The position numbers were made by a program, and so were the translations under genes. Of a DNA stretch of 28,102 nt, positions 4,889 through 28,102 are shown one piece after another; positions within the stretch are counted from its first letter, which is position 1; every line of letters begins with the position of its first letter. The notes under the pieces are model-generated. The model saw nothing but the letters and a program-made list of their open reading frames with translations, did not search any database and was not told the DNA's origin. Origin of the DNA: an uncultured virus (IMG/VR IMGVR_UViG_3300029448_000007). Lineage: Duplodnaviria; Heunggongvirae; Uroviricota; Caudoviricetes; Crassvirales. Where the stretch lies: IMG/VR virus record IMGVR_UViG_3300029448_000007; one strand, 5' to 3'.

Positions 4889-5876
4889 TTGTCGAGCTTT
4901 GTATAGAATCTGTATCTAAACCACTGGCCAAATCTTCAAGTTCTGTGCTAGAATATCTATTATTCAAATGACGAGAAAATGCAGTATTGAAATTACTAGA
5001 AACTTCATTACTCAAAATTTCTCTAATATTATGAGTATACATAGAAGGGATTGTTGTTCTATGCTTATCTTTAGTAAAAGGATTAGCACCATGAGATTGT
5101 TTACGGTCTAAGACATTAAACAACTCTTCTAGAAAATTATCGTCTTCATAAATTTTTATTTCTTTAAGATTTATGGTAATAACCAAATGATCATCTCTCA
5201 TTGAGATGTCATCTTTTAGATACTTTGACCAATACCTATAACTTGATCTTACTGGATCGTCATAGTCCCAATAACTTTCTCTAAACGAATCCCATATTCT
5301 TCCAAGATAATGATTTGTTTGATACATTAGGTTATTAAAGTAATCTGTTTTACCATCAAGAAGAGCTTTGATTAAAATATTTACATAGACATGATACTGA
5401 CAGGTATCTGTTTTAGCAGGGTCTGTCTTAATAGCAAGGTCATTATCATAGTAAACAATATCTGCGTTATAGTTTGCACCATCCATAATACAAATCTTCT
5501 TACCATTCCTAATATTAAGGCGTGTAATTGAATCCCTGTTTACTTTAAACTTCTCATTGTTTATGTAATGAAGGTCGACCTCATTGTCTTTCTCGACAGT
5601 TACGATCTTATCATCATTCATAACAGCAAGGAAGTCAGCTCCAGTACCAATACCAATCTTTGGTATATCTGGATATGCTTTGTAAGTTCTGAGAAACTCG
5701 ACGTCTTTTTCAATATCATAGTTAACACCTTTTATAGGCATCTCTTGATACATGAGGGGAAAAATATCTTCCCCATCATGATATAAAATAGCGTCAGCTT
5801 TCTCTATCTTATTCGTTTGCTTGGCACCGTCTATCCAAGAAGTATCAAGATACTCGTTTAAGACATAGATATGCAT
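4881..5876 (-). CDS. Class I glutamine amidotransferase / peptidase C26-like N-terminal domain (catalytic Cys absent) plus unknown C-terminal domain
   Basis: ADAILYHDGEDIFPLMY...DIEKDVEF...IPKIGIGTGADFLAVMN resembles GGxDxxPxxY...RDxxE...PxLGICRGxQxLNV. Confidence 0.6.
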   Translation of the reverse strand: MHIYVLNEYLDTSWIDGAKQTNKIEKADAILYHDGEDIFPLMYQEMPIKGVNYDIEKDVEFLRTYKAYPDIPKIGIGTGADFLAVMNDDKIVTVEKDNEVDLHYINNEKFKVNRDSITRLNIRNGKKICIMDGANYNADIVYYDNDLAIKTDPAKTDTCQYHVYVNILIKALLDGKTDYFNNLMYQTNHYLGRIWDSFRESYWDYDDPVRSSYRYWSKYLKDDISMRDDHLVITINLKEIKIYEDDNFLEELFNVLDRKQSHGANPFTKDKHRTTIPSMYTHNIREILSNEVSSNFNTAFSRHLNNRYSSTELEDLASGLDTDSIQSSTNE

Positions 5877-6325
5877 TCTTTCTTGAAATTTATTAGCTCA
5901 CCAATTTCTTGCGTCCTTGGTATTCTAGTTTTTAACTGCTTCTCTTTTAGCTGATAAAGACCCTCATACTTATACATGATCTTCCAAACATCTGAACCTT
6001 CGTCCAAACCGTGAAAGTCTAGTATAAGTTTTTTGTTCTCATCTGAGAACTCAGAGTATTTACCATTTACAAATTTCCAGTAATGATTCATATCTGGAAA
6101 TGGTATTACAGAAATAATAGTTTCTTTGTCGTGATCAATTATATTATTGGATACAGAAGATAGATACTCTTCGTATTCACTACCTGGATACTTCCAAAGG
6201 CAATAGATATTTTGATCAGGTTCCGTGTTCATATAACCTAAGTATGCATTTTCTAGAAAGTTAGTTCTTACGTTTACTGTCTTACTTAGAACAGGTACGA
6301 GGTAAGTATAACTTCTTGTTAGCAT
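5858..6325 (-). CDS. Hypothetical phage protein
   Basis: 155-aa ORF overlapping both neighbours in the operon. Confidence 0.6.
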   Translation of the reverse strand: MLTRSYTYLVPVLSKTVNVRTNFLENAYLGYMNTEPDQNIYCLWKYPGSEYEEYLSSVSNNIIDHDKETIISVIPFPDMNHYWKFVNGKYSEFSDENKKLILDFHGLDEGSDVWKIMYKYEGLYQLKEKQLKTRIPRTQEIGELINFKKECISMS

Positions 6326-7263: not shown

Positions 7264-7588
7264 AGAAAATTTGTTTATCCATTGTTACAAACTCTCCTAA
7301 ACTTCTAAACCTTGTACCTCTTCTAACAACCTTGTCGTGGAAGATAACAATCGGTTTATCATTAGGAGCATTCTCTCGATGTATAAGATCGAAAGAATTT
7401 AAATTCTGCTTTGATCGCTTACATTGAACATGAAAAGGGAGCGAATCTCCAAAGAGATCCACCCCCATATTATCCATGTTTCTTGACTCACTTCTGGATG
7501 TAACAACATCCGTGTAACCTAACTGCTTCAGCTCATTTCTTATCTTTCTCTCGTAAGCATGACCTGCATTTCGGTTACGATTACTCAA
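7223..7588 (-). CDS. Holliday-junction resolvase-like PD-(D/E)XK nuclease
   Basis: RNAGHAYERKI...GVDL...HVQCKR, typical of small phage resolvases. Confidence 0.75.
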   Translation of the reverse strand: MSNRNRNAGHAYERKIRNELKQLGYTDVVTSRSESRNMDNMGVDLFGDSLPFHVQCKRSKQNLNSFDLIHRENAPNDKPIVIFHDKVVRRGTRFRSLGEFVTMDKQIFYDIISRLSDGKGV

Positions 7589-8967
7589 AGTTCTGGATTT
7601 GAAAATTGAAAATTAGAGTCTGTATTAGTAGCACTACTATGAAACTTATCATCTTTTGAAAACATATCCTTTCTGAAGTCCATATACTTGCAAATATCAT
7701 CAGCTTTGTTAGAATGATATACAGATTTAAGAACTTCTTTTAAGGTTATCTTAGAAGATTCAATACAGTTTCTCGTGTTGTTGTCTGCGTACTTTACAAT
7801 TGCAACGCAAGTATAAATCCACTTAACAACTTTCTCGAGATTAAATGTATTCTCATGTAGTCTAAACTCTACAGTATGTGATTTTGTAAATAAAAGGTTA
7901 AAGATATTTACAAAGTGATACCTCGATGGAATATTCCATTTATTCACACCTTGAAAGTAATAAATATTCCTCTCGTATTCTGTCTTACTACCCGCGAGAT
8001 AATCAAAAATTGCTTTGTAAGCAGCAGAAATATAAGAGTCATAGTTCTTTGTGTATCTAGGAATCTTAATAGGAAGCTCTGCACAATAGGATTGTCCATT
8101 AGAGTTTGTTTTTCCTGGTATGCCACCACCGTCTCTCTTGTAATGAGGAAAGTAAGAATACAACTCATCCTGCAACATTTGCAGTAGACGCCACAAACCA
8201 ACGACAGTATGTGGATTGGTAGACATGCCACCAACATGGACATGGAGAGAACCTGTGTAATTGTGTAAACAATACTTGTTAAGAAGTCTACAAGACTCTT
8301 TGATGATAGGGACATCCTGAGCAGAGGTAATTGGAACCGTTACATATTCGTAAGGTTCTATACCATCTCGCCTAAGGCTACCATCTCTAACAGCAATAAG
8401 ACCAGCATTGTATAAATTATGCTGAGGTATATAACCGCTAGATGTCTCGAACTCCAAACCAATAGTATAAGGAGATATCCTACTAAAGAATCTTTTCTCT
8501 TTCTTTGTAGGCTTTAGTGATGTGTTTTGATAAAGAGTTTTGGTATCTTCAAGTTGAGACTCTGCTCGATAGCTTAGTCTACCATAACCAATACCTGTTT
8601 GAGTCTTTCTAATACGACCATTCTTTATAAACACATTGTTTGAAGTGTCATATGAATAATCATCTGGTAAAATATCTTCAGATAAGGCTGTAACTATTAA
8701 ACCATCTTCTAAAAATACGTTAATATTCTTACAAATATTTGGTGTAAAATAACCTCTTTCAAAGTCTGAGTTTATAATACCCGTTGTCATTTCAGACTTT
8801 TTAGCATAGCATTTGTTTTCATGATCAAAAGCAATGGAACCGTTGTTTAGACGATTCCATCTACCTTTGACCAAGAAACAATCTACATTCATTTCATAGT
8901 ACTCGCCATTTATCTTTCTACAATTTTTTCGTAGAGCTGGCTGACCGTCAAACTTTACTATCTTCAT
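7585..8967 (-). CDS. Putative amidoligase (COOH-NH2 ligase, Amidoligase_2-like)
   Basis: TIGLEFET, DGSL, EYVT, GSLHVHVG, RYHFVN, TVEFRLH motifs. Confidence 0.85.
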   Translation of the reverse strand: MKIVKFDGQPALRKNCRKINGEYYEMNVDCFLVKGRWNRLNNGSIAFDHENKCYAKKSEMTTGIINSDFERGYFTPNICKNINVFLEDGLIVTALSEDILPDDYSYDTSNNVFIKNGRIRKTQTGIGYGRLSYRAESQLEDTKTLYQNTSLKPTKKEKRFFSRISPYTIGLEFETSSGYIPQHNLYNAGLIAVRDGSLRRDGIEPYEYVTVPITSAQDVPIIKESCRLLNKYCLHNYTGSLHVHVGGMSTNPHTVVGLWRLLQMLQDELYSYFPHYKRDGGGIPGKTNSNGQSYCAELPIKIPRYTKNYDSYISAAYKAIFDYLAGSKTEYERNIYYFQGVNKWNIPSRYHFVNIFNLLFTKSHTVEFRLHENTFNLEKVVKWIYTCVAIVKYADNNTRNCIESSKITLKEVLKSVYHSNKADDICKYMDFRKDMFSKDDKFHSSATNTDSNFQFSNPEL

Positions 8968-10657
8968 ATGCCGAAATGTCTGCTAGAAATTTATCAACTG
9001 TGTTTGAAATGTGCTCTTTGTAAGATGTGTTTTCAAACACATCACCAACAAGATTCTCATTGCTAAAAGCAATTACGAGATCAACAAGATTCACTAGTTC
9101 CTTTTCGAGTGCTTCATCACTCATCTCGGAAATGATATCTTGTTCTACATCAGAAGGGGATGTCGTCTTGTTGGTTTGACCTGATCCAAAATTTTCATCA
9201 TCAATTTGTGACGAAACTTTGTTATAAACAAAATCATATGTCGTTGGATTGGGGTTGAAAGACATATTGTATAATAGAGTGTCCAAGTCAATAGCGTCCC
9301 ATACACTCTCAGGAACTTTTTTAAGATCCTCCATGTTAGCATTTATAAAGAAGTCTTCATCGTATATAGCATCAGCACCATCGTCTATGACTTTGAGTTT
9401 ACCTTTAGATTCAAAGATGAGTTCAACTTCTCTTGCAAAAGGAGTTATCTCAACTTCATTAGGGTAACCATCTTTATCCGAACTAATATACTCAAGTTCT
9501 TTTGACTTATCTTCAGTAAGGAGACCAACAGAAAATGGAAAGAGACAATATTTCTTTGCGTCTTTAAGCAAAGATTTCTTATCTCTGTTTGACATTTTAC
9601 CAGACCAGATAGTAGAAGTAGATATCTTCTTAGACAAAACATCATAACCTTCCTTTGAAACATAGACACCTTGATAGAAATAACACTTTACAGTGTTGTC
9701 TACTTCTTGTTTATGCCACTCACCAGTATCCTTATTGACATAATAAAAGCCATGAGCTTTCATTGCGCTTATCCTAAAACAACCTTTAGCCCAATATATA
9801 AATCCATTGTACTCAGTGATGTTTAAGAAGTCTTCTTCAATAATATTACCTGGTTGATAATTATAACTATAACTATAATTATAACTATAAGGAGCTTTGC
9901 TATTCATGTTACCAGATCCTGTAACAATACCAGGCTCAAAAGAAGAACGATCGATATCAAAAGAATCAACTTCTTTACCAAGATAGTTCATCCTTACAAG
10001 CTTGTTCATATCGAACTCTTCTGGCTCTGCTTCAAACTTATATAGCAAGCTGATAAACTCAAGAGAATATTTGAGAGAAGACCAGTATATACCGTCATCT
10101 GTCTTTAGAAGAAACAAAGGTCTCTCTGAAACAAGTTTACCTTTGTTCTTACCATATTTCTCTTTTGTAGCACCACGAAATAGCCACACCTCACCAATGG
10201 TATCACTCATTGTAATACAAGCACCGCCTTCATATTCAGACAATACTTTCTGATTTGGAAAGTCTACCAAGATAGACTTCATAAAACCATGTGAGTCAAC
10301 CTCTATGTCCTTGATATCAACCTTGTAATTATTACAGAGAGCTTTCCAGTTGGTAACAGTACCGTTCTTTGCACCTACCCAACCATCTCCAAGATCGAAG
10401 GGATGAGCATTTTCTATATTGACAGCACCAGCAGTCTTAGCTCGCGTGTGACCAATGATAGTACACAGACCATCTGGATATTCAATATCCGTATTCATTC
10501 CCGAAAAGAAGTTAAGACCTTTGTAGATTTTATTCTGCTCCTTAGTGTGTATGTATACACCCCAAGAGTCTGTACCTCTGCTTTCGTTTATTGTACCCAA
10601 AAGAGCAATAGCTGACTTATTGGGATTTGTTCCTATGTATCCGAATAATCCACACAT
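8948..10657 (-). CDS. Class II (Ntn) glutamine amidotransferase domain protein
   Basis: N-terminal MCGLFG, RGTDSWG, GHTRAKT, NAHPF, NGT, VDS. Long C-terminal extension. Confidence 0.9.
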   Translation of the reverse strand: MCGLFGYIGTNPNKSAIALLGTINESRGTDSWGVYIHTKEQNKIYKGLNFFSGMNTDIEYPDGLCTIIGHTRAKTAGAVNIENAHPFDLGDGWVGAKNGTVTNWKALCNNYKVDIKDIEVDSHGFMKSILVDFPNQKVLSEYEGGACITMSDTIGEVWLFRGATKEKYGKNKGKLVSERPLFLLKTDDGIYWSSLKYSLEFISLLYKFEAEPEEFDMNKLVRMNYLGKEVDSFDIDRSSFEPGIVTGSGNMNSKAPYSYNYSYSYNYQPGNIIEEDFLNITEYNGFIYWAKGCFRISAMKAHGFYYVNKDTGEWHKQEVDNTVKCYFYQGVYVSKEGYDVLSKKISTSTIWSGKMSNRDKKSLLKDAKKYCLFPFSVGLLTEDKSKELEYISSDKDGYPNEVEITPFAREVELIFESKGKLKVIDDGADAIYDEDFFINANMEDLKKVPESVWDAIDLDTLLYNMSFNPNPTTYDFVYNKVSSQIDDENFGSGQTNKTTSPSDVEQDIISEMSDEALEKELVNLVDLVIAFSNENLVGDVFENTSYKEHISNTVDKFLADISAYEDSKV

Positions 10658-11394
10658 TAGACTAACTCTAGTTTTCTTTGATTAACCAATTGATCCCACG
10701 CATTTTCGTCATACTCATTGATAGCAGACTGAAGTAAGTTTACTTCTTCAATTGTGGGCATTTTAAAATCCTCTAGCTTCTGCATTTGATTAAATACAAA
10801 AACCATTAAGTCTTCACTCGTAAGCCAGTAGTTTGAAACACTCCTAAACTCGAAGCCATAAGGTTTGATTCTGAAAGAACCACACTTACCATACAGCTTT
10901 CTGCGTTCTCTATCAGGGTCTTTCATTGTAATGGGTAGATTGACAAGCATCTCAAAACCAACTACAAACCTGATAACATCGAACTTTTTTGTTTCAAAGT
11001 GAATGTGACCACCGCAAGATCTCAGTGATGTTTTCTTTGCGTTTGGTACACAAGGCATACCGAATATAGTTTCATCAGGAGCACAACCAAAGGTCATTGA
11101 GTTCTTTGTTTGCAACTCTTCTGGAGGAAACTCTGCAGATGATTGAATACATATATCTACAGGGTAGTCAAGGTGCATTCTGATGTAGTCCATCATTTTT
11201 ACATTGCTTGCTACGAATTCATCTGCTGTATTGGCAGGTGGTATAGTCCACTCCGCTGCAACATTATCTGACATTAAAGTGAAACCAGGTTCAATAACTT
11301 CAGGCTTGTCTTTTCTACCTTTGAAGTATCTCTCTGCTGATATAAAGTCTTCTCCTTTGAGAAAAACCTCAGGGTCAGTACCTATTCTTGACAT
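10657..11394 (-). CDS. phiEco32-like COOH-NH2 ligase type 2
   Basis: IGTDPEVFL, DNVAAEWTIPP, FGCAPD, LRSCGGHIH, RRKLYGKCGSFRIKPYGFEFRS. Confidence 0.9.
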   Translation of the reverse strand: MSRIGTDPEVFLKGEDFISAERYFKGRKDKPEVIEPGFTLMSDNVAAEWTIPPANTADEFVASNVKMMDYIRMHLDYPVDICIQSSAEFPPEELQTKNSMTFGCAPDETIFGMPCVPNAKKTSLRSCGGHIHFETKKFDVIRFVVGFEMLVNLPITMKDPDRERRKLYGKCGSFRIKPYGFEFRSVSNYWLTSEDLMVFVFNQMQKLEDFKMPTIEEVNLLQSAINEYDENAWDQLVNQRKLELV

Positions 11395-12244
11395 GTTCTT
11401 TTACTTTTTGTCTTTTACCCAACTCATTTTTAACTATTACGGAACCATCCTTAAAAAACTTTTCGATAAAATAGTTTTTGTTTTTTCTCAATAAAATCTT
11501 TTTACCTTTCTTAATAGTTTTTGTAGGGTATATTGCCTCTACAATACCACTAACTTGTCTTCCAGAACAATCTAATCTTTCCCTATAGGAACTAGTCAAG
11601 TTTCTTAAAACCCAATCAGATTTAAATGCTTTCTTAAGCGTGTCTTCTTTTATAAGAAGTGATCTTTGGTACATAATTGGTGCAAAAGAAAATGTTGGAA
11701 TACCAGCAATACATTTTAGAAGAGCAGTTTCTGGTTTGAAACCTCTTTTAATATATTTAAAATACTGATCTGGAACACAATGTTCACTTTGATAAGCATA
11801 GAAGCTTTCAGTTGCTGCAAATCTTATCAAACAGCCTGTTACATAGTTACCATCTGGAAAAGGAGAATCATTTTTTTTTCTAACATTACCCCTCTTACCA
11901 TAAGAAACCGTATAGCAATCTACTCTTTGAGCACACTTTTTTGCATAAATAACTCCTTTTTTTAAATCCATTTTATCGTATGTGCTAGAGTTTAACTCTT
12001 CTCTAACTTCTTTTGGAGGAGTAGCTTTTTTAGGTAATGGTATATCAACAATATTCTCTCTGATATGCTGTAAGAATCTAAGACCTTTGCTATTATAAGC
12101 ACCTATATAAATTTTAAATGAGTCGGCCGTTTTCATATTTTGCCAACAGTAACCATCTCTTAATATCTTATTTGCTATAGTACCAGTCCAGGTTCGACCA
12201 GTACATGTCATTACAGATCTTGGGACTCGTCTTGTATTTTCCAT
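11375..12244 (-). CDS. Hypothetical basic protein within amidoligase cluster
   Basis: 289-aa Lys/Arg-rich ORF overlapping both neighbours. Confidence 0.6.
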   Translation of the reverse strand: MENTRRVPRSVMTCTGRTWTGTIANKILRDGYCWQNMKTADSFKIYIGAYNSKGLRFLQHIRENIVDIPLPKKATPPKEVREELNSSTYDKMDLKKGVIYAKKCAQRVDCYTVSYGKRGNVRKKNDSPFPDGNYVTGCLIRFAATESFYAYQSEHCVPDQYFKYIKRGFKPETALLKCIAGIPTFSFAPIMYQRSLLIKEDTLKKAFKSDWVLRNLTSSYRERLDCSGRQVSGIVEAIYPTKTIKKGKKILLRKNKNYFIEKFFKDGSVIVKNELGKRQKVKEHVKNRY

Positions 12245-12957
12245 CGTATTAGTTTATTTAAGTGATCTCTATATTGCTCGATTCCCAACTCACCCAATGC
12301 TGGTGCGGAATTTATCTCACAAATAATGAAGTCACCTTTTTTATTTACTCTTACGTCACAAGCACCTAGATTTAAACCAGTTGCTTTTAATGCTCTTGAG
12401 CAATGCTCAATTATATCTTCCCAATTATCAGGTCTGTTGAAAAGCTCATGGTTGGAGCTTACCCAATTACAATTGTGAGAATTGAAAAACCATCTTTCTG
12501 TAGAGTCAGATCGTCTTAGTTTACGCCAAGACATGATTTCCCCTAAATCAGAAATATGAACTCTATACTCTCGAGAGTAGTTATAAAACTTCTCAATAAC
12601 ATATCTATCTATATTGTTAGAACTAACGAACTTTTCTAACTCTTTCTCATCTTTTATAAGTACCATACCTACACCTTGCCTACCATAATGTCTTTTTACA
12701 ACAAGTGGAAACTCAACATTGGTCAAGTCTTTGTACCACAGTGCTTGGTTGACATTATGCTTTTCAAACAAGGTCTTCATGATAAACTTAGAAGATGAAT
12801 TCTTAACTGACTGTACCGTATTGATATGCAAATCGGCATCTCTCTCTGTAACAGAACCGAGACGAACAACAACTCTATAAGGAGTTCTGTCTAATGTTCG
12901 CCTCAGCCCATTACAAGAGTGATTTCTAGATAAGACCTTAGGCCTTCTATATTTCAT
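12211..12957 (-). CDS. ATP-grasp ligase (RimK/glutathione synthetase-like)
   Basis: FPLVVK...GRQGVGM, IEKFY...EYRVH, GACDV...ICEINSAP. Confidence 0.9.
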   Translation of the reverse strand: MKYRRPKVLSRNHSCNGLRRTLDRTPYRVVVRLGSVTERDADLHINTVQSVKNSSSKFIMKTLFEKHNVNQALWYKDLTNVEFPLVVKRHYGRQGVGMVLIKDEKELEKFVSSNNIDRYVIEKFYNYSREYRVHISDLGEIMSWRKLRRSDSTERWFFNSHNCNWVSSNHELFNRPDNWEDIIEHCSRALKATGLNLGACDVRVNKKGDFIICEINSAPALGELGIEQYRDHLNKLIRWKIQDESQDL

Positions 12958-13325
12958 TATAGATTTGTAAAGTCACCTGATGGAATATAGTCTAGATCTT
13001 TTACATCATTATTCCAGATGTAAATATCTGCTTTACCGTGACTTGTTTCAACAGTCTCTGCACGATACATACCTTGACTAGGATTATTCCTGTATGCACC
13101 TTCAAGCCTGTCTAGATTCTTGACAATCTCAGGTTCAGTAACCTCATAGACATCAACGGTAATTTCTTCATTACCTTCAACAACTGCAGGAAACCATCCT
13201 ACATTGTACATTTTAAACTGCGGTTTGGTACGCTCGGTACCCAAATGTTTTGCTCTTTTTAAGAGCCTATTATTCCCGAACCCTGGTCTCAGGGTGCCAT
13301 AAACCGCAAAGCGCTTTGCTTTCAT
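12957..13325 (-). CDS. Gamma-glutamylcyclotransferase (AIG2/GGACT-like)
   Basis: AVYGTLRPG, FPAV, VDVYEV, LDRLEG, YR, SGDF. Confidence 0.9.
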   Translation of the reverse strand: MKAKRFAVYGTLRPGFGNNRLLKRAKHLGTERTKPQFKMYNVGWFPAVVEGNEEITVDVYEVTEPEIVKNLDRLEGAYRNNPSQGMYRAETVETSHGKADIYIWNNDVKDLDYIPSGDFTNL

Positions 13326-24480: not shown

Positions 24481-24707
24481 TTTGTTTTAAATTTTTTACG
24501 AAGTTTTCTTACATATTCAAGTAAAGCCATTGCTACTCTTTGATCGGAATCAAACATTCTAGTTAAGCTGGATTCATACATAAATAATTTATCCCACTCA
24601 TAACTTGAAAGTTGACTCATTTCCCAAAGCTCTTTGTCTTTTACTCTTGATGGTATATTGCACTCACAGTTTTCAACTGTTTGATTACAATATTTACAAT
24701 CACTCAT
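24477..24707 (-). CDS. Small protein with N-terminal CxxC...CxC motif
   Basis: MSDCKYCNQTVENCECNIPS. Its ATG comes from the repeat at 24705. Confidence 0.6.
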   Translation of the reverse strand: MSDCKYCNQTVENCECNIPSRVKDKELWEMSQLSSYEWDKLFMYESSLTRMFDSDQRVAMALLEYVRKLRKKFKTK

Positions 24708-25090
24708 CTCTCTTCGGTGTTATCGGGTGTTGTGTCTAATGCTATCCTAAGTACCCATTTAAGAGTATTAATATCTCGCTGAACATCTTCTTTCGCTTGC
24801 ATATAATGTCCTCTAACTTTTGCATCTTCTTCTTTGATTAGAAGTTTTTCAACTGCATCAAGATTTTTTTGCAATTCGTCTATTTTATTCTGTATCTCTT
24901 TTCGATTTTTCATTTCAACATCAGGCATTATACCAAACACCTCATTAATTGTTTCTTTACTATACCCATCTATCTCTAATGCTAATTCTATTGCGCCCCT
25001 AATAGCATAAGGGTAATGACACGTTTTAGTATCTATTGTTACTATTGGTGTTTGAATTTCACTTTGGTTTCTTTCAATAATTATCTTCAT
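24704..25090 (-). CDS. Hypothetical protein (probably two fused modules), ends DNTEER
   Basis: Start reassigned to the repeat-borne ATG at 25090 (MKIIIERN). Internal MKNRKEIQ coiled-coil module. Confidence 0.6.
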   Translation of the reverse strand: MKIIIERNQSEIQTPIVTIDTKTCHYPYAIRGAIELALEIDGYSKETINEVFGIMPDVEMKNRKEIQNKIDELQKNLDAVEKLLIKEEDAKVRGHYMQAKEDVQRDINTLKWVLRIALDTTPDNTEER

Positions 25091-25131
25091 CTCTCTTTGG
25101 TGTTTGTTATTAGATGTTGTAAAACATAAAA

Positions 25132-25299
25132 TTATTCCATCCATTTCTTAGTGCGCCTTAAAAACTTCTTACGGTCATATTTTTTCCACCAACCTTTTTT
25201 GAAGTAAGATAAGTGTTTACCTTTTTTATCCAAAGGCGCACCACAATCACCTTCTTCGTAATTGTGCCATTTCTCTGTTTTTACTCTTCCTATTTTCAT
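25132..25299 (-). CDS. Hypothetical 55-aa basic protein
   Basis: MKIGRVKTEKWHNYEEGDCGAPLDKKGKHLSYFKKGWWKKYDRKKFLRRTKKWME*. Starts at a repeat ATG. Confidence 0.6.
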   Translation of the reverse strand: MKIGRVKTEKWHNYEEGDCGAPLDKKGKHLSYFKKGWWKKYDRKKFLRRTKKWME

Positions 25300-25331
25300 C
25301 TCTCTTTGGTTTTAGCGGGTGTTATGGTGCA

Positions 25332-25526
25332 TTATCCCTCGCTAGGTACTTTTGTCTTTTCTCTAGGCTGTTTGGTTTCGTAGTACCAAATATGAATCAT
25401 CGGAAAATTCCTAACACTACCGTCTTCAAACAATAAAGCCAAGGTACACCCCTCAATAAAATGAGATAGTACATTATCATAATGAATTGGTGTTGTCGTG
25501 TCTTTTAGTTTAATCTTTACTTTCAT
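25332..25526 (-). CDS. Hypothetical 64-aa protein
   Basis: Starts at a repeat ATG and stops just before the GTT core at 25321. Confidence 0.6.
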   Translation of the reverse strand: MKVKIKLKDTTTPIHYDNVLSHFIEGCTLALLFEDGSVRNFPMIHIWYYETKQPREKTKVPSEG

Positions 25527-25849
25527 CTCTCTTTGGTGTTTAGTTTAATTTTAGCAGTTTCCAAGCCTCTCCAAATTACACAAGTGGGAAACTTGATTTC
25601 CGTTTTTAACCCCATGTCAAGGGCAATATCTTGAAAGTCTTGAGACATTTCATGCCGCAAATAGCAAAGCATTGAATTTGTTTCTGTCTCAAAAGACCAA
25701 TGAGCATCGTTACCATTACCACTTTGGTCGTACCAAGTTGAAATATAGCCGGTCACCTCTCTTTTGTAAGGCTCACCCACATAAGTGGTGCTTAATCTCC
25801 TTGTTGAGTATGCAGCAAGTGCTTTAGGGTATTCGTTAAGTACGTTCAT
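25523..25849 (-). CDS. Hypothetical protein, ends LNTKER
   Basis: Starts and ends in repeat copies. Contains AAYSTRRL and WYDQSGNGNDA. Confidence 0.6.
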   Translation of the reverse strand: MNVLNEYPKALAAYSTRRLSTTYVGEPYKREVTGYISTWYDQSGNGNDAHWSFETETNSMLCYLRHEMSQDFQDIALDMGLKTEIKFPTCVIWRGLETAKIKLNTKER

Positions 25850-26004
25850 CTCTCTTTGGTGTTTAGATGTTCAAGAATATCAGCGGCCAGGTCCCTGATC
25901 TCTACCAAGATGTCACAAATATCAACGGCCACTTCCCTGACCTTCTTCGCACAGAAGAAGATCACGGAGCACAGGGCGATGGTCAAAAGGATCGTCTGTA
26001 TCAT
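25846..26004 (-). CDS. Small membrane-anchored protein, ends LNTKER
   Basis: MIQTILLTIALCSVIFFCAKKVREVAVDICDILVEIRDLAADILEHLNTKER*. Bounded by two repeats and visibly more GC-rich than its neighbours. Confidence 0.6.
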   Translation of the reverse strand: MIQTILLTIALCSVIFFCAKKVREVAVDICDILVEIRDLAADILEHLNTKER

Positions 26005-26042
26005 TTCTCTTTGGTGTTAGCAGTTGTTGTAGTGCATTGTGC

Positions 26043-26240
26043 CTACCATATTATTGGTCGTTCACACCTTCCGCAAAGTCCTGGCCTACCATCAATATCA
26101 GGTAGTTCACATTCACAACGGCACAACGTACCCTTCGGTTTCATTTTGCATAAATCAAAAAGTCCTTTGTGTTTTTCCTTTGAGGGTATGTGACATTCAC
26201 AATTCTCAATGGTCTGTCCACATTCTTTGCAGTTTTTCAT
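26043..26240 (-). CDS. Small Cys-rich (double Zn-finger-like) protein
   Basis: CKEC...CEC and CRCEC...CGRC motifs. Confidence 0.6.
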   Translation of the reverse strand: MKNCKECGQTIENCECHIPSKEKHKGLFDLCKMKPKGTLCRCECELPDIDGRPGLCGRCERPIIW

Positions 26241-26263
26241 ATTTCTTTAAACGTTGTGGTGCA

Positions 26264-26404
26264 TTAGACTAAATCAATCACTTCAATCGTAAACGCTACT
26301 CCTTCTGTAGAGTAGTGGCGAAGTGCAAACCTGTGTGCGATTCTCGTATAGCTTCGGTCTACTATTTTACCGTTTACTATAATTCTGTATTCTTTCTGAG
26401 GCAT
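26264..26404 (-). CDS. Hypothetical 46-aa protein
   Basis: MPQKEYRIIVNGKIVDRSYTRIAHRFALRHYSTEGVAFTIEVIDLV*. Starts at a repeat ATG and stops beside the core at 26253. Confidence 0.55.
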   Translation of the reverse strand: MPQKEYRIIVNGKIVDRSYTRIAHRFALRHYSTEGVAFTIEVIDLV

Positions 26405-26430
26405 CTTTCTTTGGTGTTAGTGGGTGTTAG

Positions 26431-26625
26431 CTACAATATTCTCTCGGATAGTTTATGCCCTTCTTCCGTAGGAAACTTATGTCCACATTTTGGGCACTTG
26501 CATCTAAGAGTAATGTAACCGTTTAATATTCGGTTTAGCTTCGATTTCATTTCTGCATCATCAGTACAGTTGTAAAGGCTAATAATCTCTTCCTTTAGTT
26601 CTTCTCTAATTTCTTCGTTTGTCAT
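26431..26625 (-). CDS. Small protein with CPKCG zinc-knuckle
   Basis: LRCKCPKCGHKF. Stop lies inside the core site GTTAGCTACAAT at 26426. Confidence 0.55.
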   Translation of the reverse strand: MTNEEIREELKEEIISLYNCTDDAEMKSKLNRILNGYITLRCKCPKCGHKFPTEEGHKLSERIL

Positions 26626-26658
26626 ATCATTAAGTTTTATTTAATTCGCTCATAGGGC

Positions 26659-26829
26659 TTATCTCTCTTCGGTGTTGCAAGTTACTATGTAAGGAGGGTT
26701 ACACGGATTCCGAGTGTCGTTTGGATAGTATGGGTGTATTACTACATGATTTTCTGATAGTAGTATTACTGCTTCTTCTGCTGTAATGTGATTACCCTCT
26801 AATAATCTCTGAATTATCTCTGCTTTCAT
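26659..26829 (-). CDS. Hypothetical 56-aa protein, ends NTEER
   Basis: MKAEIIQRLLEGNHITAEEAVILL...YIVTCNTEER*. Bounded by repeats. Confidence 0.6.
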   Translation of the reverse strand: MKAEIIQRLLEGNHITAEEAVILLSENHVVIHPYYPNDTRNPCNPPYIVTCNTEER

Positions 26830-26969
26830 CTCTCTTTAGTCTTTAGGTATAGCTCAAAAAGTTCAGATAACTTTACCCATTCATTGATATGATTTTTGTA
26901 TAGCCAATAATGAAATTCGGTGTTAAACTCCCTTTTATTCTTGAAGTAGTTTTTTCTGATTTCACTCAT
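26826..26969 (-). CDS. Hypothetical 47-aa protein, ends KTKER
   Basis: MSEIRKNYFKNKREFNTEFHYWLYKNHINEWVKLSELFELYLKTKER*. Bounded by repeats. Confidence 0.6.
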   Translation of the reverse strand: MSEIRKNYFKNKREFNTEFHYWLYKNHINEWVKLSELFELYLKTKER

Positions 26970-26991
26970 CTCTCTTTGGTGTTAGCTGGTG

Positions 26992-27366
26992 TTAGTGGCA
27001 ATTTTACTCACCACTCCGAAAGACATCAGCGTTGAAATATTTAGCCAAGTTCTCAACCTCTTGCTTAAATTCTGTTTCATCACGCATTGTCTTGCATAAC
27101 AATATTTCTACAACTCCATCTACTTTTTTGCTCAAACAATAAGCAAGAGCATTTTTATCGTAAGTGTCAACGCCCATTGCATAATACGGCTGTTTAATGA
27201 TAGCTTTATCCAACAGAGATTTGTCGAATAAAAAACTGCCACTAACATCGGCTATAAAATCATTGCCGTTTTTGTGCTTACCAGAAGTTTCGTTCTCTTT
27301 ACTCATTTTGTTTCTAATTTGAAAGTTATAGCGTTTTAATCGGCAACGCTTCATAGCCGTGATACG
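26992..27366 (+). mobile_element. Integron-like gene cassette 1 (gene antisense to attC)
   Basis: Starts G/TTAGTGGCA (26991-27000). Perfect inverse core TGCCACTAAC (27237-27246) opens the attC-like hairpin ending at GTT 27366. Confidence 0.75.
27004..27306 (-). CDS. Cassette-borne hypothetical protein (100 aa)
   Basis: Probable start MSKENET at 27306, inside the hairpin loop. Reads FIADVSGS across the left arm. Confidence 0.65.
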   Translation of the reverse strand: MSKENETSGKHKNGNDFIADVSGSFLFDKSLLDKAIIKQPYYAMGVDTYDKNALAYCLSKKVDGVVEILLCKTMRDETEFKQEVENLAKYFNADVFRSGE

Positions 27367-27372
27367 TTATCT
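27240..27372 (+). other. attC-like recombination site A
   Basis: cactAAC-at-CGGCTAT-aaaat-cattgccg ... cggcaacg-cttc-ATAGCCG-tgatac-GTTatct. Confidence 0.75.
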
Positions 27373-27643
27373 ACAAGTTTTTTGTAGACTCTACTTTATC
27401 ACGAACAGCGTTGATATAGGCTTTGCCATAATTTCTAAAATCACCTGTCTTTCCTTTTTTCATAAGTTTATCTACGTGTTGGGTTTCTAATCCTTCAAGC
27501 AAAGCCCTTAACTTTCGTTTATAACTATTTCTTGCTGGGTATAAAAACCAGTAGATAACACGGGCTATAAAGCCATTTTTTGAATCTTTCTGCATAATAT
27601 TAATATTTTAGGTTTATAAAAACAGGCTCATAGCCCAGCTACG
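27367..27643 (+). mobile_element. Integron-like gene cassette 2
   Basis: Starts G/TTATCTAC (27366-27374). Perfect inverse core GTAGATAAC (27551-27559). Confidence 0.75.
27371..27595 (-). CDS. Cassette-borne hypothetical protein (74 aa)
   Basis: ATG inside the hairpin loop. Reads FIARVIY across the left arm. Stop lies in the core site. Confidence 0.65.
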   Translation of the reverse strand: MQKDSKNGFIARVIYWFLYPARNSYKRKLRALLEGLETQHVDKLMKKGKTGDFRNYGKAYINAVRDKVESTKNL

Positions 27644-27649
27644 TTAGGC
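27553..27649 (+). other. attC-like recombination site B
   Basis: agatAAC-ac-GGGCTAT-aa-agcc ... ggct-c-ATAGCCC-agctac-GTTAGGC (canonical GTTRRRY). Confidence 0.75.
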
Positions 27650-27973
27650 TTCATTACCGAGACGCATTATATCATCAAGTTTTTCTGATAATTCGTTCCT
27701 TGTTTGTTCTGCATGAGTGTATCTACGTACTCCATACAAATGCATCATATATTTTACTTCTTCGATAAATTCAAGCAAAGAAACGTTAACATCGGCTAAA
27801 ACGAAATTATTATTTACTTTAATCCTGCGTTCCATTTCTTGCCTTGCTTCTACATAAGCATCGTGCATATTTTTACTTCTTGGGTTGTTTAATGCTCGGC
27901 TGTGCAGTTGGCACACTAACTCAAGCAAGTCAAGAGTATTTCTTTCTTCAACTGGTTTTAGTTCTGTATTCAT
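27644..27973 (-). CDS. Cassette-borne hypothetical protein (109 aa)
   Basis: ATG inside the hairpin loop. Reads VLADVNVS across the left arm. TAA overlaps the core site. Confidence 0.65.
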   Translation of the reverse strand: MNTELKPVEERNTLDLLELVCQLHSRALNNPRSKNMHDAYVEARQEMERRIKVNNNFVLADVNVSLLEFIEEVKYMMHLYGVRRYTHAEQTRNELSEKLDDIMRLGNEA

Positions 27974-28023
27974 ATTTATTGTTTTTAATTCGTAAATAAT
28001 AACTATCGTTTAGCCGTGTTCCG
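27644..28023 (+). mobile_element. Integron-like gene cassette 3
   Basis: Runs from core G/TTAGGC to GTT at 28023. The inverse core (cgttaac) is only partly complementary. Confidence 0.6.
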
Positions 28024-28029
28024 TTGTTC
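27784..28029 (+). other. attC-like recombination site C (unusually long loop)
   Basis: cgttAAC-at-CGGCTAA-a-acga-aa-ttattatttac ... gtaaataataa-cta-tcgt-TTAGCCG-tgttcc-GTTgttc. Confidence 0.65.
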
Positions 28030-28102
28030 GCAATTAAGGCAGGTTCAATTCCGAAACAGGACAAAAGTGAGTTGGGTAAAAATCAAATTCAGTTCCACTT
28101 AC

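Follow-up and report, generated by a model that had tools for sequence, protein, structure and literature searches.

Hairpin-bounded early genes of a marine phage: probable integron-like cassettes in an inverted layout, with start codons inside the sites

Three small early genes lie on the minus strand of a marine phage window (the whole stretch of DNA that was analysed, 28,102 nucleotides), with ATG codons at 27973, 27595 and 27306. Each starts within an imperfect hairpin and is read out across one of its arms. The locus thus raises the question of whether these hairpins are expression signals, accidents of sequence or the exchange sites of gene cassettes and, if they are exchange sites, which way the cassettes face and where they are joined.

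In all three cassettes (C, B and A) the start codon is located in the hairpin loop, between the inverted-repeat arms, together with an A/T-rich leader. The hairpins share one plan, which is (T/C)AAC, 6 nt, stem, loop, stem, 2 nt and GTTA, and the 3' arm is translated in one common frame, giving ..FIAD|VSGS, ..FIAR|VIYW and ..VLAD|VNVS. The stop codon of ORF C is the TAA within GCCTAAC, that of ORF B is a TAG immediately 5' of ATAAC, and that of ORF A is a TAA ending 10 nt ahead of CACTAAC. ORF A has a further in-frame ATG upstream, at 27354 within the 5' arm, and this reading is open in some relatives only. The initial annotation had described minus-strand ORFs, ATG codons in the loops, an arm read in frame and stops near the core, and all of these are present in the sequence; where it gave about 50 codons in the loop of site C, 52 were counted between the ATG and the 3' arm. 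The features are as follows.

Hairpin module C, 27787..28026, minus strand: CAAC at 28026-28023, 6-nt spacer at 28022-28017, spacer AT at 27792-27791, GTTA at 27790-27787.
Hairpin C arms, 28016-27992 and 27817-27793, minus strand: 25 nt, 80% complementary.
Hairpin C loop, minus strand: A/T-rich leader, ATG 27973 and 52 codons.
ORF C, 27973..27644, minus strand: 109 aa, of which the first 61 (to ..NNNFVLAD) are a conserved N-terminal domain.
Start of body C, 27790, minus strand: Val codon GTT.
Hairpin module B, 27556..27646, minus strand: TAAC at 27646-27643 (containing the stop TAA of ORF C), spacer GTAGCT, spacer GT, GTTA at 27559-27556.
Hairpin B arms, 27636-27618 and 27580-27562, minus strand: 19 nt, 74% complementary; loop with ATG 27595; 83-nt module.
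ORF B, 27595..27371, minus strand.
Body B, 27366..27559, minus strand: R' at 27559-27546 (GTTATCTACTGGTT) and R'' at 27379-27366 (AACTTGTAGATAAC); inverted repeat of 17 nt, 88%.
Hairpin module A, 27243..27369, minus strand: TAAC at 27369-27366, spacer GTATCA, spacer AT, GTTA at 27246-27243.
Hairpin A arms, 27359-27338 and 27271-27249, minus strand: inverted repeat plus a GGCTAT/ATAGCC core, read by eye and folded.
Hairpin A loop, minus strand: ATG 27306 and leader MSKENETSGKHKNGNDFIAD.
ORF A, 27306..27004, minus strand.
Body A, 26991..27246, minus strand: R' at 27246-27233 (GTTAGTGGCAGTTT) and R'' at 27004-26991 (AAATTGCCACTAAC); inverted repeat of 23 nt, 87%.
Array end or 'empty site', 26967..26990, minus strand: ACCAGC, TAACACCAAAGAGAG and the ATG of the first resident gene.

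The strength of the hairpins was examined by folding and by comparison. The single-sequence DNA fold z-scores were -1.27 for A, -1.70 for B and -3.16 for C, and the fold energies of modules C and B were -26.1 and -9.7 kcal/mol. Since the folding of single sequences is weak evidence, the view that the hairpins are more than chance is taken from the comparative data. Among 25 diverse modules, 88.8% of the cells of the 17-bp stem were paired in comparison with 61.3% in shuffles, none of 500 shuffles reached the observed values, sliding the stem partners left 31-46% paired, and compensatory changes were present at 15 of the 17 pairs. Stem mismatches in 53 modules were strongly one-sided, with 107 of the 5'G/3'T type against 6 of the 5'T/3'G type and 13 of the A.C type. 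The modules also carry a conserved A/T-rich box (consensus ..AACTT...AAATTA..).

A body signature was defined as GTT plus 11 nt against 11 nt plus AAC, complementary and with a G.T at position 11. In 32 loci (271 kb) there were 69 such pairs on the seed strand and 1 on the opposite strand, while shuffles gave 0-2. Within the 28-kb window the strict signature occurred only twice, both times on the minus strand, at body B and at body A. Of the three sites, C is the weakest: it has CAAC as its 5' box, and the complement at the end of its body is degenerate (8/14) and fails the body signature. What defines the module family is its L box together with the positions of the G.T pairs and the body-end complement. 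When these features were left out and only TAAC-stem-GTTA was scanned for, 17 instances were found against 13.9 +/- 5.8 in shuffles, which is no enrichment. The phage records had been collected with the window's own module as the seed. An Rfam gathering scan and a tRNA scan of the window returned no matches, and a ribozyme, intron or tRNA identity of the window elements was rejected on these empty scans. A sigma-70 promoter and terminator scan of the window was uninformative, the consensus not being applicable to Bacteroidota promoters. On this comparative evidence, sites A, B and C belong to a large, covarying hairpin family of fixed strand polarity.

Translation through the arm was also investigated. 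The loop ATG was in frame in 44 of 50 through-open bodies; one alternative frame reached 31 of 50 and was only moderately lower, because xATGTTA itself contains an ATG. The bodies have no start codons of their own, and Pfam domains begin just past the junction, with Lar at residue 22 and position 2 of the C5 methylase profile at residue 47. Few of the cargo genes could be named, and those that could encode anti-restriction proteins and DNA methylases.

Orientation was read not from integron conventions but from an internal polarity marker, namely the strand on which the G.T wobbles lie and the spacers are asymmetric (6 nt and 2 nt). We dropped a 'canonical' ORF orientation deduced from stops in the ..AAC box, since both strands of such sites read AAC...GTT and the position of a stop cannot show orientation; the polarity marker and the joints decided. 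Module polarity and L-box sequence are alike in bacterial (Flavobacteriales) and phage arrays. Of 65 distinct phage bodies, 46 had the ORF on the marked strand, 11 were open on both strands, 7 on neither and 1 on the opposite strand. In contrast, bacterial bodies beside an Xer-like recombinase had the longer open frame on the other strand in 11 of 11 cases (8 clear, 3 partial), in a small sample of 11 bodies from 7 loci, five of which were picked for a signature already seen. The inverted orientation proposed in the initial annotation agrees with these counts, because the genes of bacteria and phages lie opposite relative to the marker. In bacteria the genes lie antisense to the marked strand, which argues that the hairpin is conserved as DNA and not as mRNA. 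Inversion of bodies to give alternative ORFs was considered and rejected, as body A, read in reverse, yields 14 codons (ORF 26910..27035) and none of the contig joints listed changed strand.

Exchange of cassette parts was analyzed in viral records and in metagenome contigs. Module A is the sole part of window positions 26900-28102 that matches any phage record, with 89% identity to Cellulophaga phage phi17:1, and it was found in 30 viral loci (26 non-redundant) that have nothing else in common with the window. In phi17:1, gp8 carries the leader of ORF A. Leader A stands ahead of at least 15 different bodies. Conversely, in every one of the 30 homologues aligned, chosen among the 120 listed, body A stands behind an unrelated N-terminus, and in five loci the DNA identity runs from TGTTAG to ..CCACTAAC with unrelated flanks. 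A second body, common to loci L126 and L127, showed the same join pattern as body A. Body B (VIYWFLYP..) is conserved and the leaders in front of it differ. The 61-aa N-terminal part of ORF C is conserved as protein, 24 of its columns being near-invariant, and at least 10 unrelated C-termini follow it after VLAD|V; in P0173, body C carries a different short leader. The earlier suggestion that N-termini are swapped at the other arm was thus borne out by the body and leader search for A, B and C. The crossover is not pinned to G|TT in L160 and L161, where R' differs at positions 6-7 and R'' is uncompensated.

Whole cassettes were also found to be absent from some genomes. A contig of metagenome X8 skips 26991-27365, which is exactly cassette A, by a joint of 26990 to 27366 with a 4-nt ambiguity (GTTA fits either side). 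The three-cassette block was absent by joints of 26993 to 28032 in contigs of three studies (X2, X4 and X8), and a further cassette-free joint, 26984 to 28023, was found in X2 and in RNA run X15, whose contigs contain only this joint and parts of the flanks. The right edge of the three-cassette indel is thus 28023/28032, and the cassette-free genomes join the 'empty site' straight to the region beyond. Contig joints may be chimeras; the same joints recur in three studies. The breaks of the absent cassettes fall in GTT/GTTA boxes of the plus strand, and these contigs of independent metagenomes support cassette boundaries at the plus-strand GTT cores. Many differing loose contig ends were present at 26983-27003. 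Contigs of four runs showed a gap in cover at 27828-27968, to which no meaning is attached. Judged by these sequence comparisons, exchange occurs at both arms, as movement of whole cassettes and as in-frame reassortment of leaders and bodies. Breakpoints at both arms are not predicted by a single-strand, integron-type exchange.

The recombinase genes near such arrays were then compared. None of the 41 ORFs of the 28-kb window matched an integrase PHROG, and a tyrosine recombinase was present in only 2 of 29 related viral records and in 1 of the 7 that are at least 90% complete. Neither a serine recombinase nor a Y1 transposase was found in the 5 complete records, and among proteins of at least 90 aa encoded within +/-6 kb of the phage arrays, no family was common to more than 4 of 26 contigs. 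Loci L134 and L150 have Xer-like genes after the array. On Flavobacteriales chromosomes, the same sites adjoin an Xer-like tyrosine recombinase. A signature body lay within 1.5 kb of a recombinase homologue in 8 of 33 bacterial loci, and in 6 of 9 wider bacterial neighbourhoods an array directly adjoined the gene for the recombinase, in comparison with no arrays in six random 20-kb regions. The homologue was present in 104 of 201 genomes, some of these possibly being housekeeping Xer proteins. Array-linked recombinases scored 125.2 and 147.8 bits, in two stretches, against the 265-bit cut-off of TIGR02249 (integron integrase), and their best family was Xer-like, likewise under its cut-off. The window itself encodes a recombination module consisting of Sak4, an exonuclease and RusA.

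The modules could instead be regulatory cassettes like the PeSLs of T4-type phages, acting in transcription or in the mRNA (as terminator or insulator plus promoter and start) and shuffled as a by-product of general phage recombination with no site-specific enzyme. This reading fits a module that holds a start codon and a conserved A/T-rich box and whose wobble-bearing strand is the mRNA strand in phages; it also fits the lack of an encoded recombinase in most carriers and the general recombination genes of the window. The available text on T4-type PeSLs, with their mini-circles, documents a precedent (PMC2839356; PMC4122927). However, the breakpoints have no flanking homology, with just 4 nt (GTTA) in common at the cassette-A deletion, and the five body-A loci have unrelated upstream modules. 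The antisense position of the bacterial polarity marker excludes a role of the conserved fold in the mRNA, the 14-nt end complement of each body would be left with no role, and the bacterial arrays associate with an Xer-like recombinase. We therefore consider a purely regulatory origin unlikely.

Exchange with no dedicated machinery was also weighed, in which hairpins juxtapose the short AAC/GTTA repeats, slippage or illegitimate recombination deletes or copies the DNA between them, and selection keeps the in-frame products. Hairpin-assisted slippage between short repeats is an established process, and the cassette-A deletion is indeed bounded by a 4-nt direct repeat beside two stems. Such slippage accounts for deletions but not for the insertion of unrelated cassettes at one box across many genomes, nor for the loose ends and the 15 or more bodies behind one leader, and it leaves the fixed G.T positions and the link to a recombinase gene unexplained, which makes it very improbable as the whole account. 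That the hairpins are chance palindromes and the genes upstream ORF extensions by a gene caller draws on the weak z-scores of A and B and on the generic scan at shuffle level. Against it stand the covariation, the 69 signature pairs against 0-2 in shuffles, the recurrence in cultured phages phi17:1 and P12002L, and bodies that have no start codons while known domains open right past the junction; we regard its probability as negligible.

The reading we prefer is that A, B and C are probably cassettes of a hairpin-dependent, integron-like system by which Flavobacteriales and their phages exchange genes, here in a phage-specific inverted layout. Each cassette, on the gene-sense strand, would consist of a hairpin module and a body. 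The module would open with (T/C)AAC and a spacer of about 6 nt. A stem of about 17 bp, in which the G.T wobbles are fixed, would then enclose an A/T-rich loop that supplies the translation start and the leader peptide, and after the return arm 2-3 nt would lead to GTT(A/G). The body would extend from GTT to a 14-nt element that complements its first 14 nt and finishes in ..AAC; the stop would lie in this element or just ahead of it. The marked strand is predicted to fold as single-stranded DNA and to be cut by an Xer-like recombinase at the AAC next to the unpaired spacer. Since most of the phages lack a recombinase, the enzyme would usually be that of the host, acting in trans. Because the genes are inverted, the loop must presumably provide the start codon, and probably a promoter, and the 3' arm and GTT box would be translated as a consequence. 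Events on the other arm or strand may give rise to the in-frame chimeras of leader and body. The hairpin in the mRNA might in addition gate translation, as the initial annotation proposed.

A wider proposal can be offered only tentatively. Marine Flavobacteriales phages might practise two-point, in-frame protein shuffling atop an integron-like platform, in which the AAC arm moves whole self-expressing genes and the GTT arm, at a fixed codon phase inside the coding sequence, joins N-terminal modules to cargo domains in the manner of exon shuffling, the mostly lytic phages borrowing the Xer-like enzyme of the host during infection. If so, the phages would combinatorially rebuild an early anti-restriction repertoire that comprises Lar, the DNA methylases and numerous unknown genes. 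Integron-like capture has been viewed as bacterial and IntI-dependent; Bacteroidota are poorly covered, and the phage cases amount to a few predicted CALINs (clusters of two or more attC sites with no integrase close by). In this window and its relatives, the same hairpin sites serve bacteria and their phages with opposite gene orientation, and phage cassettes bring their own start within a site that also acts as an in-frame joint of protein modules. This offers a concrete, testable route to fast turnover of phage early genes, and a natural example of a recombination-site sequence that has to work both as folded DNA and as protein code. Cellulophaga phage phi17:1 and Polaribacter phage P12002L are cultured and carry the sites, so pairs for testing exist.

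The cassettes resemble those of integrons in several respects. Both have arrays of small genes between imperfect palindromes that end in ..AAC and GTT.., an unpaired spacer between outer and inner stem, one strand that folds better, a cassette start that complements its own end, breakpoints in the GTT/AAC triplet and stops in the AAC box. Boundaries of the integron kind are seen in the GTTA joint of 26990 to 27366, in the joints at 26993/28032 and in the R'/R'' complements of A and B. Each of the three sites has AAC/GTT together with two stems and asymmetric spacing. The attC consensus is RYYYAAC...GTTRRRY; GCCTAAC (27649-27643) alone fits RYYYAAC, and AGATAAC and GTTATCT do not fit. The outer stem has 14 bp with fixed G.T in place of 7 bp, and the spacers are 6 nt and 2 nt. 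In integrons the ORF is carried by the top strand, which is not the recombined one, reads towards its attC and stops ahead of or within the inverse core; the window and 46 of the 65 phage bodies have it instead on the folding strand, with its start in the loop and the arm translated, whereas the bacterial arrays of this site family are ordinary in this respect. In addition, the second arm here is also a breakpoint and yields in-frame chimeras. In an integron, a tyrosine recombinase distinguished by the IntI-specific extra domain stands beside the array; the window has no integrase, and the enzymes of related arrays fall below the TIGR02249 cut-off.

With three sites in 1.1 kb and no recombinase in 28 kb, the array would qualify as a CALIN, provided that its sites count as attC-like. 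The available text of Qi et al. (2023, PMC9892861) lists a CALIN in Polaribacter phage P12002L and resembles our case in that the enzyme is absent from most phage arrays. According to the same text, P12002L_attC1 was the only one of six phage sites for which no attI1 junction by IntI1 was verified, the five others giving one. The oligonucleotide for P12002L_attC1, as it appears there, follows the site plan of the window, and phage P12002L has 5 signature bodies. The label 'attC' given to the sites at the outset was abandoned, as these do not appear to be the attC of a true integron: there is no IntI, the linked enzyme in relatives is Xer-like, and P12002L_attC1 gave no verified junction with IntI1.

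The rAID-1 elements of Bacteroidales, in the accessible part of the preprint by Ross et al. (bioRxiv 10.1101/471110), have an XerD-like tyrosine recombinase on the 5' side of two or more co-directional low-GC genes; the sequences between the genes are repetitive and are described as 'reminiscent' of integrons. The bacterial layout in L207 and L210 matches this description. In contrast to our arrays, rAID-1 elements hold immunity genes of gut bacteria, and that part of the preprint does not mention phage arrays, starts within hairpins or in-frame swapping. The PeSLs, as far as the available text describes them (PMC2839356, PMC4122927), also lie in hyperplastic early regions, where composite motifs (promoter, stem-loop and the start of the next gene) flank ORFans, and they too show modular shuffling and mini-circles with no known dedicated recombinase. 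However, PeSL exchange is described there as homologous, with crossovers within the motif, whereas breaks in the window's family fall at boxes of 3-4 nt, with 4-nt boxes and unrelated flanks in place of homology. Furthermore, the stem here encloses the start codon and leader, the bodies have an end complement of their own, and a recombinase-linked bacterial counterpart exists. A likeness to Xer dif sites and to the capsid-targeting leader of T4 was also considered and is given no weight.

Exchange in this family takes place between genomes and at hairpin sites, and the contigs show no change of strand. In shufflons and invertible tail-fibre segments (Rci/sfx; Gin, Cin), by contrast, sites inside a coding sequence join one N-terminal part in frame to alternative C-termini by inversion within one genome, at short double-stranded DNA repeats and with the enzyme encoded nearby. 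Our search for a published description of this cassette architecture returned none, the nearest being the PeSL papers, Qi 2023 and Ross 2019; the available portion of a paper on Cellulophaga phages (PMC11946311) makes no mention of promoters, hairpins, repeats or integrase. Integron-like cassettes and phage CALINs are known, and what appears to be new here is the inverted phage layout, with a start in the loop and in-frame swapping at the second arm.

The window holds a phage replication and early region, with genes nearly all on the minus strand, including those for a DNA polymerase, helicases, a primase, Sak4, an exonuclease, RusA and an amidoligase/glutamine-amidotransferase cluster. The sole large plus-strand gene is a 1,467-aa ORF (114-4517), open at the window start, which matched no Pfam family and gave a weak PHROG match to a family of unknown function. 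The minus-strand genes at 7585-13325 (amidoligase, glutamine amidotransferase-like, COOH-NH2 ligase, glutaminyl-transferase-like and gamma-glutamyl cyclotransferase, beside MazG-like pyrophosphatases) look like a DNA base-hypermodification module, judged from PHROG names only. Three consecutive ORFs occupy the far end:

27973..27644, minus strand: ORF C, directly ahead of B and A
27595..27371, minus strand: ORF B, small, middle of the three
27306..27004, minus strand: ORF A, small, last of the three

Each gene start is bracketed by a hairpin module with a common plan on the minus strand: (T/C)AAC, 6 nt, 5' arm, loop, 3' arm, 2 nt and GTTA. The loop contains an A/T-rich leader and the ATG, with 12, 20 or 61 codons from ATG to GTT; in gene C, about 52 of the 61 codons precede the 3' arm. 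All three genes read the 3' arm and GTT box in one frame (FIAD/V, FIAR/V and VLAD/V), and each preceding gene stops within or next to the AAC box. The initial annotation had described these ORFs, loop ATGs, in-frame arms and stops, and every item proved correct when the sequence was re-read. The single-sequence DNA fold z-scores were unremarkable for A (-1.27) and B (-1.70) and better for C (-3.16).

We compared the leaders with the bodies, the gene parts running from GTT to the next AAC. Leader A preceded at least 15 unrelated bodies. Body A had 129 homologues; among 30 that were aligned, picked for varied length and coverage from 120 listed, the body VSGSFLFDK.. was conserved in 30/30, behind unrelated N-termini of <10 to ~80 aa. 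At five loci the body-A DNA was common from TGTTAG to ..AAAATTGCCACTAAC, with unrelated flanks on both sides, and the final 15 nt, beyond the stop, were identical in 5/5. A second body, common to loci L126 and L127, showed the same bounded identity. Body B was conserved behind differing leaders. In gene C the conserved piece was the 61-aa N-part, which has no fewer than 10 different C-termini attached after VLAD/V; another leader was also found in front of the C body. The check proposed in the initial annotation, a search for the same body with different N-termini, was thus positive. The C N-part (27791-27973), a domain with ..DLLELVCQLHSRAL..MHDAYVEARQEMERR.., is conserved across dozens of metagenomic proteins whose C-termini are unrelated; PF04448 (DUF551) is present in two of them.

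Public-metagenome contigs were aligned to window 26700-28102. A contig of run X8 joined 26990 to 27366 and was without exactly module A and body A, the 4 letters GTTA fitting either side. Contigs from three studies (X2, X4 and X8) joined 26993 to 28032 across six other letters, and X2 and the RNA run X15 joined 26984 to 28023; both sets lacked all three cassettes. Many different contig continuations started at 26983-27003 and at 27655, and read depth in the flanks was 3-5 times that of the cassettes. From these joints, the unit gained or lost is therefore a module plus a gene, bounded by plus-strand GTT/GTTA (minus-strand AAC) boxes. At L122 and L131, one module plus body lay in different contexts. 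The comparisons point to exchange at both arms, of leaders and bodies at the GTT arm and of whole cassettes at the AAC arm.

The minus-strand stretch 24705-26983, which follows the hairpin cassettes downstream, contains 10 copies, at <=3 mismatches (0.12 expected), of a 17-mer that includes a start codon, AACACCAAAGAGAGATG; each copy lies at the start of one of several consecutive small genes. Because the 17-mer sits at the next gene's start, the preceding genes end in ..NTKER and a stop, with an ATGA overlap. Metagenome contigs break at these joints too (loose ends 26966, 26825 and 26703). The repeats could mark a second kind of cassette junction, one of homology type, or else a phage-specific start region.

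An inverted-repeat search showed that the 14 nt from GTT (R') are complementary to the 14 nt ending at the next AAC (R''), where the ORF itself ends, in bodies A and B:

Body A, minus strand: R' GTTAGTGGCAGTTT, R'' AAATTGCCACTAAC
Body B, minus strand: R' GTTATCTACTGGTT, R'' AACTTGTAGATAAC

The sole mismatch in both was G opposite T at position 11, and the whole window contained exactly two pairs with this signature, those of A and B. Body C failed the 14-nt test, with 8/14 matching by hand count. Among body-A loci, R' positions 6-7 were variable in L160 and L161. Within window 26900-28102, the one stretch to match any GenBank phage was 27232-27369, exactly module A, at 89% to Cellulophaga phage phi17:1. 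The leader of that phage, MSKENE..GNDFIAD as in the window, is fused in frame to another protein body, whose start and end are again mutually complementary in letters that differ from the window's.

Searching with 20 nt of module A as the seed retrieved 30 loci on viral contigs, of which 26 are non-redundant, and 7 contigs from MAGs; they had nothing but the module in common with the window. The data showed 97 'GTT+11 nt / 11 nt+AAC' pairs in these loci, compared with 18-37 in shuffles, and 52 had the same G.T. With the G.T required, the seed strand had 69 pairs and the opposite strand 1 (32 loci, 271 kb; shuffles 0-2). The longest array, in L138, packed 11 or more bodies into 9.7 kb, separated by modules of 116-117 or 79 nt, and 42 non-redundant modules fell into two size classes, ~77-83 nt and ~105-120 nt. 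Alignment of 25 long modules gave a 17-bp helix with 88.8% of cells paired, compared with 61.3 +/- 1.7 in shuffles (0/500) and 31-46% with slid partners. Compensatory changes were found in 15/17 pairs, and one pair was G.U in 23/25 sequences and another in 16/25. Stem mismatches over 53 modules, a count that omits 24 further R' sites without a hairpin at the score threshold used, were 5'G/3'T 107, 5'T/3'G 6 and A.C type 13; one strand only could fold free of A.C. Short hairpin sites of the same plan, with the conserved loop (C)GTTTTAAT(G), lie at L122 ~6426, L126 ~2335, L140 (phi17:1) ~6309, L144 ~4769 and in L162 after body A. The reverse complement of this loop, GATTAAAAC, directly follows the 5' arm in long modules, and oligo P12002L_attC1 of Qi et al. 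(PMC9892861) shares this loop.

One frame was open from GTT to the stop at the AAC box in 50 of 77 distinct signature bodies. GTT was a codon in 38 of these, in frame +1 in 10 and in frame +2 in 2. An in-frame loop ATG was present in 44/50, and the two other frames gave 31/50 and 5/50; the former count is inflated because xATGTTA itself contains ATG. With A-type modules left out, the in-frame count was 23/29 vs 11 and 5. The bodies were without start codons of their own. As a rule, judging from these reading frames, genes of the site family appear to start in the loop. Pfam domains began immediately beyond the joint: Lar started at residue 22 in each of two proteins, and the C5 methylase profile matched from its position 2 at residue 47. 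Other recognised cargo was N6/N4 methylase and NUMOD4/HNH endonuclease. No family was found for 33 of 40 scanned cassette proteins, the three window proteins among them. Locus L147 carries, at 5311-5967 (minus strand as stored), a NUMOD4/HNH homing endonuclease that lacks its own start codon and is fused to the common MSKENK..GNDFIAD leader.

No recombinase was found among the 41 window ORFs. A tyrosine recombinase was present in 2/29 related viral records (1/7 of those >=90% complete), and a serine recombinase or Y1 transposase in 0/5 complete ones. In L134 and L150 the recombinase is encoded by the gene that comes next after the last AAC box, and the two enzymes share 34% identity. Both are Xer-like and score under the integron-integrase cut-off, so the label 'attC' used initially is too loose. 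Homologues (E <= 1e-35) occurred in 104/201 sampled genomes of one order, some of which may be housekeeping Xer, and a signature body lay within 1.5 kb at 8/33 bacterial homologue loci. In wider neighbourhoods the array abutted the recombinase gene in 6/9, five of the nine having been chosen for a signature already seen and the four unselected ones yielding one array; six random 20-kb regions had none. Many homologues lie 100-1500 nt from a contig end, as expected if repeated cassette sites break assemblies.

The bacterial modules match those of phages in polarity, and the L box (GGCTATGAAGCG../..TTTATAGCC) agrees as well. Taking the strand with the G.T wobbles and 6-nt/2-nt spacers as marked, bacterial genes lay opposite it in 8/11 bodies clearly and 3/11 partly, with 0 on it. 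Among 65 phage bodies, 46 had the ORF on the marked strand, 11 were open on both, 7 on neither and 1 on the opposite strand. Phage cassettes are therefore inverted relative to bacterial ones, and the inversion first proposed from the window alone held. Contig L204 carried both orientations. The single opposite phage case is a signature-bracketed body in the structural module of Polaribacter phage P12002L (L164 14622-15197, plus), around gp24, the sole minus-strand gene there; its ORF has the bacterial orientation. Since the conserved fold is antisense to mRNA in bacteria, it belongs to the DNA rather than to the mRNA. Phage mRNA carries the well-folding version of the hairpin, and a putative added effect on translation is possible.

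Most likely, the marked strand would fold when single-stranded, with the 14-bp outer stem, 6/2-nt spacer and inner stem of a free cassette circle making up one long hairpin. Its G.T pairs, ~11-12 bp either side of the spacer, would fit two recombinase subunits, and a Xer-like recombinase would cut at AAC beside the spacer. IntI cuts attC bottom strands in like manner. Most phages would borrow the host's enzyme. Leader/body chimeras would come from events on the other arm or strand, and would be viable because most cassettes hold GTT in a constant codon phase.

Polaribacter phage P12002L has five signature bodies. Qi et al. 2023 (PMC9892861) list a CALIN in this phage; there, oligo P12002L_attC1 has the module plan of the window family, and is the only site of six without a verified IntI1 junction. 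The rAID-1 clusters of Bacteroidales described by Ross et al. (bioRxiv 471110) combine a XerD-like recombinase with co-directional genes and with intergenic repeats that resemble integrons, and are a possible relative. The literature search found no description of genes starting inside sites, an inverted phage layout or in-frame swapping. The window cassettes are best read as belonging to the integron-like, Xer-linked cassette systems. The nearest phage analogue in function is the PeSL cassettes of T4-type phages, which differ in that they recombine by homology (PMC2839356, PMC4122927).
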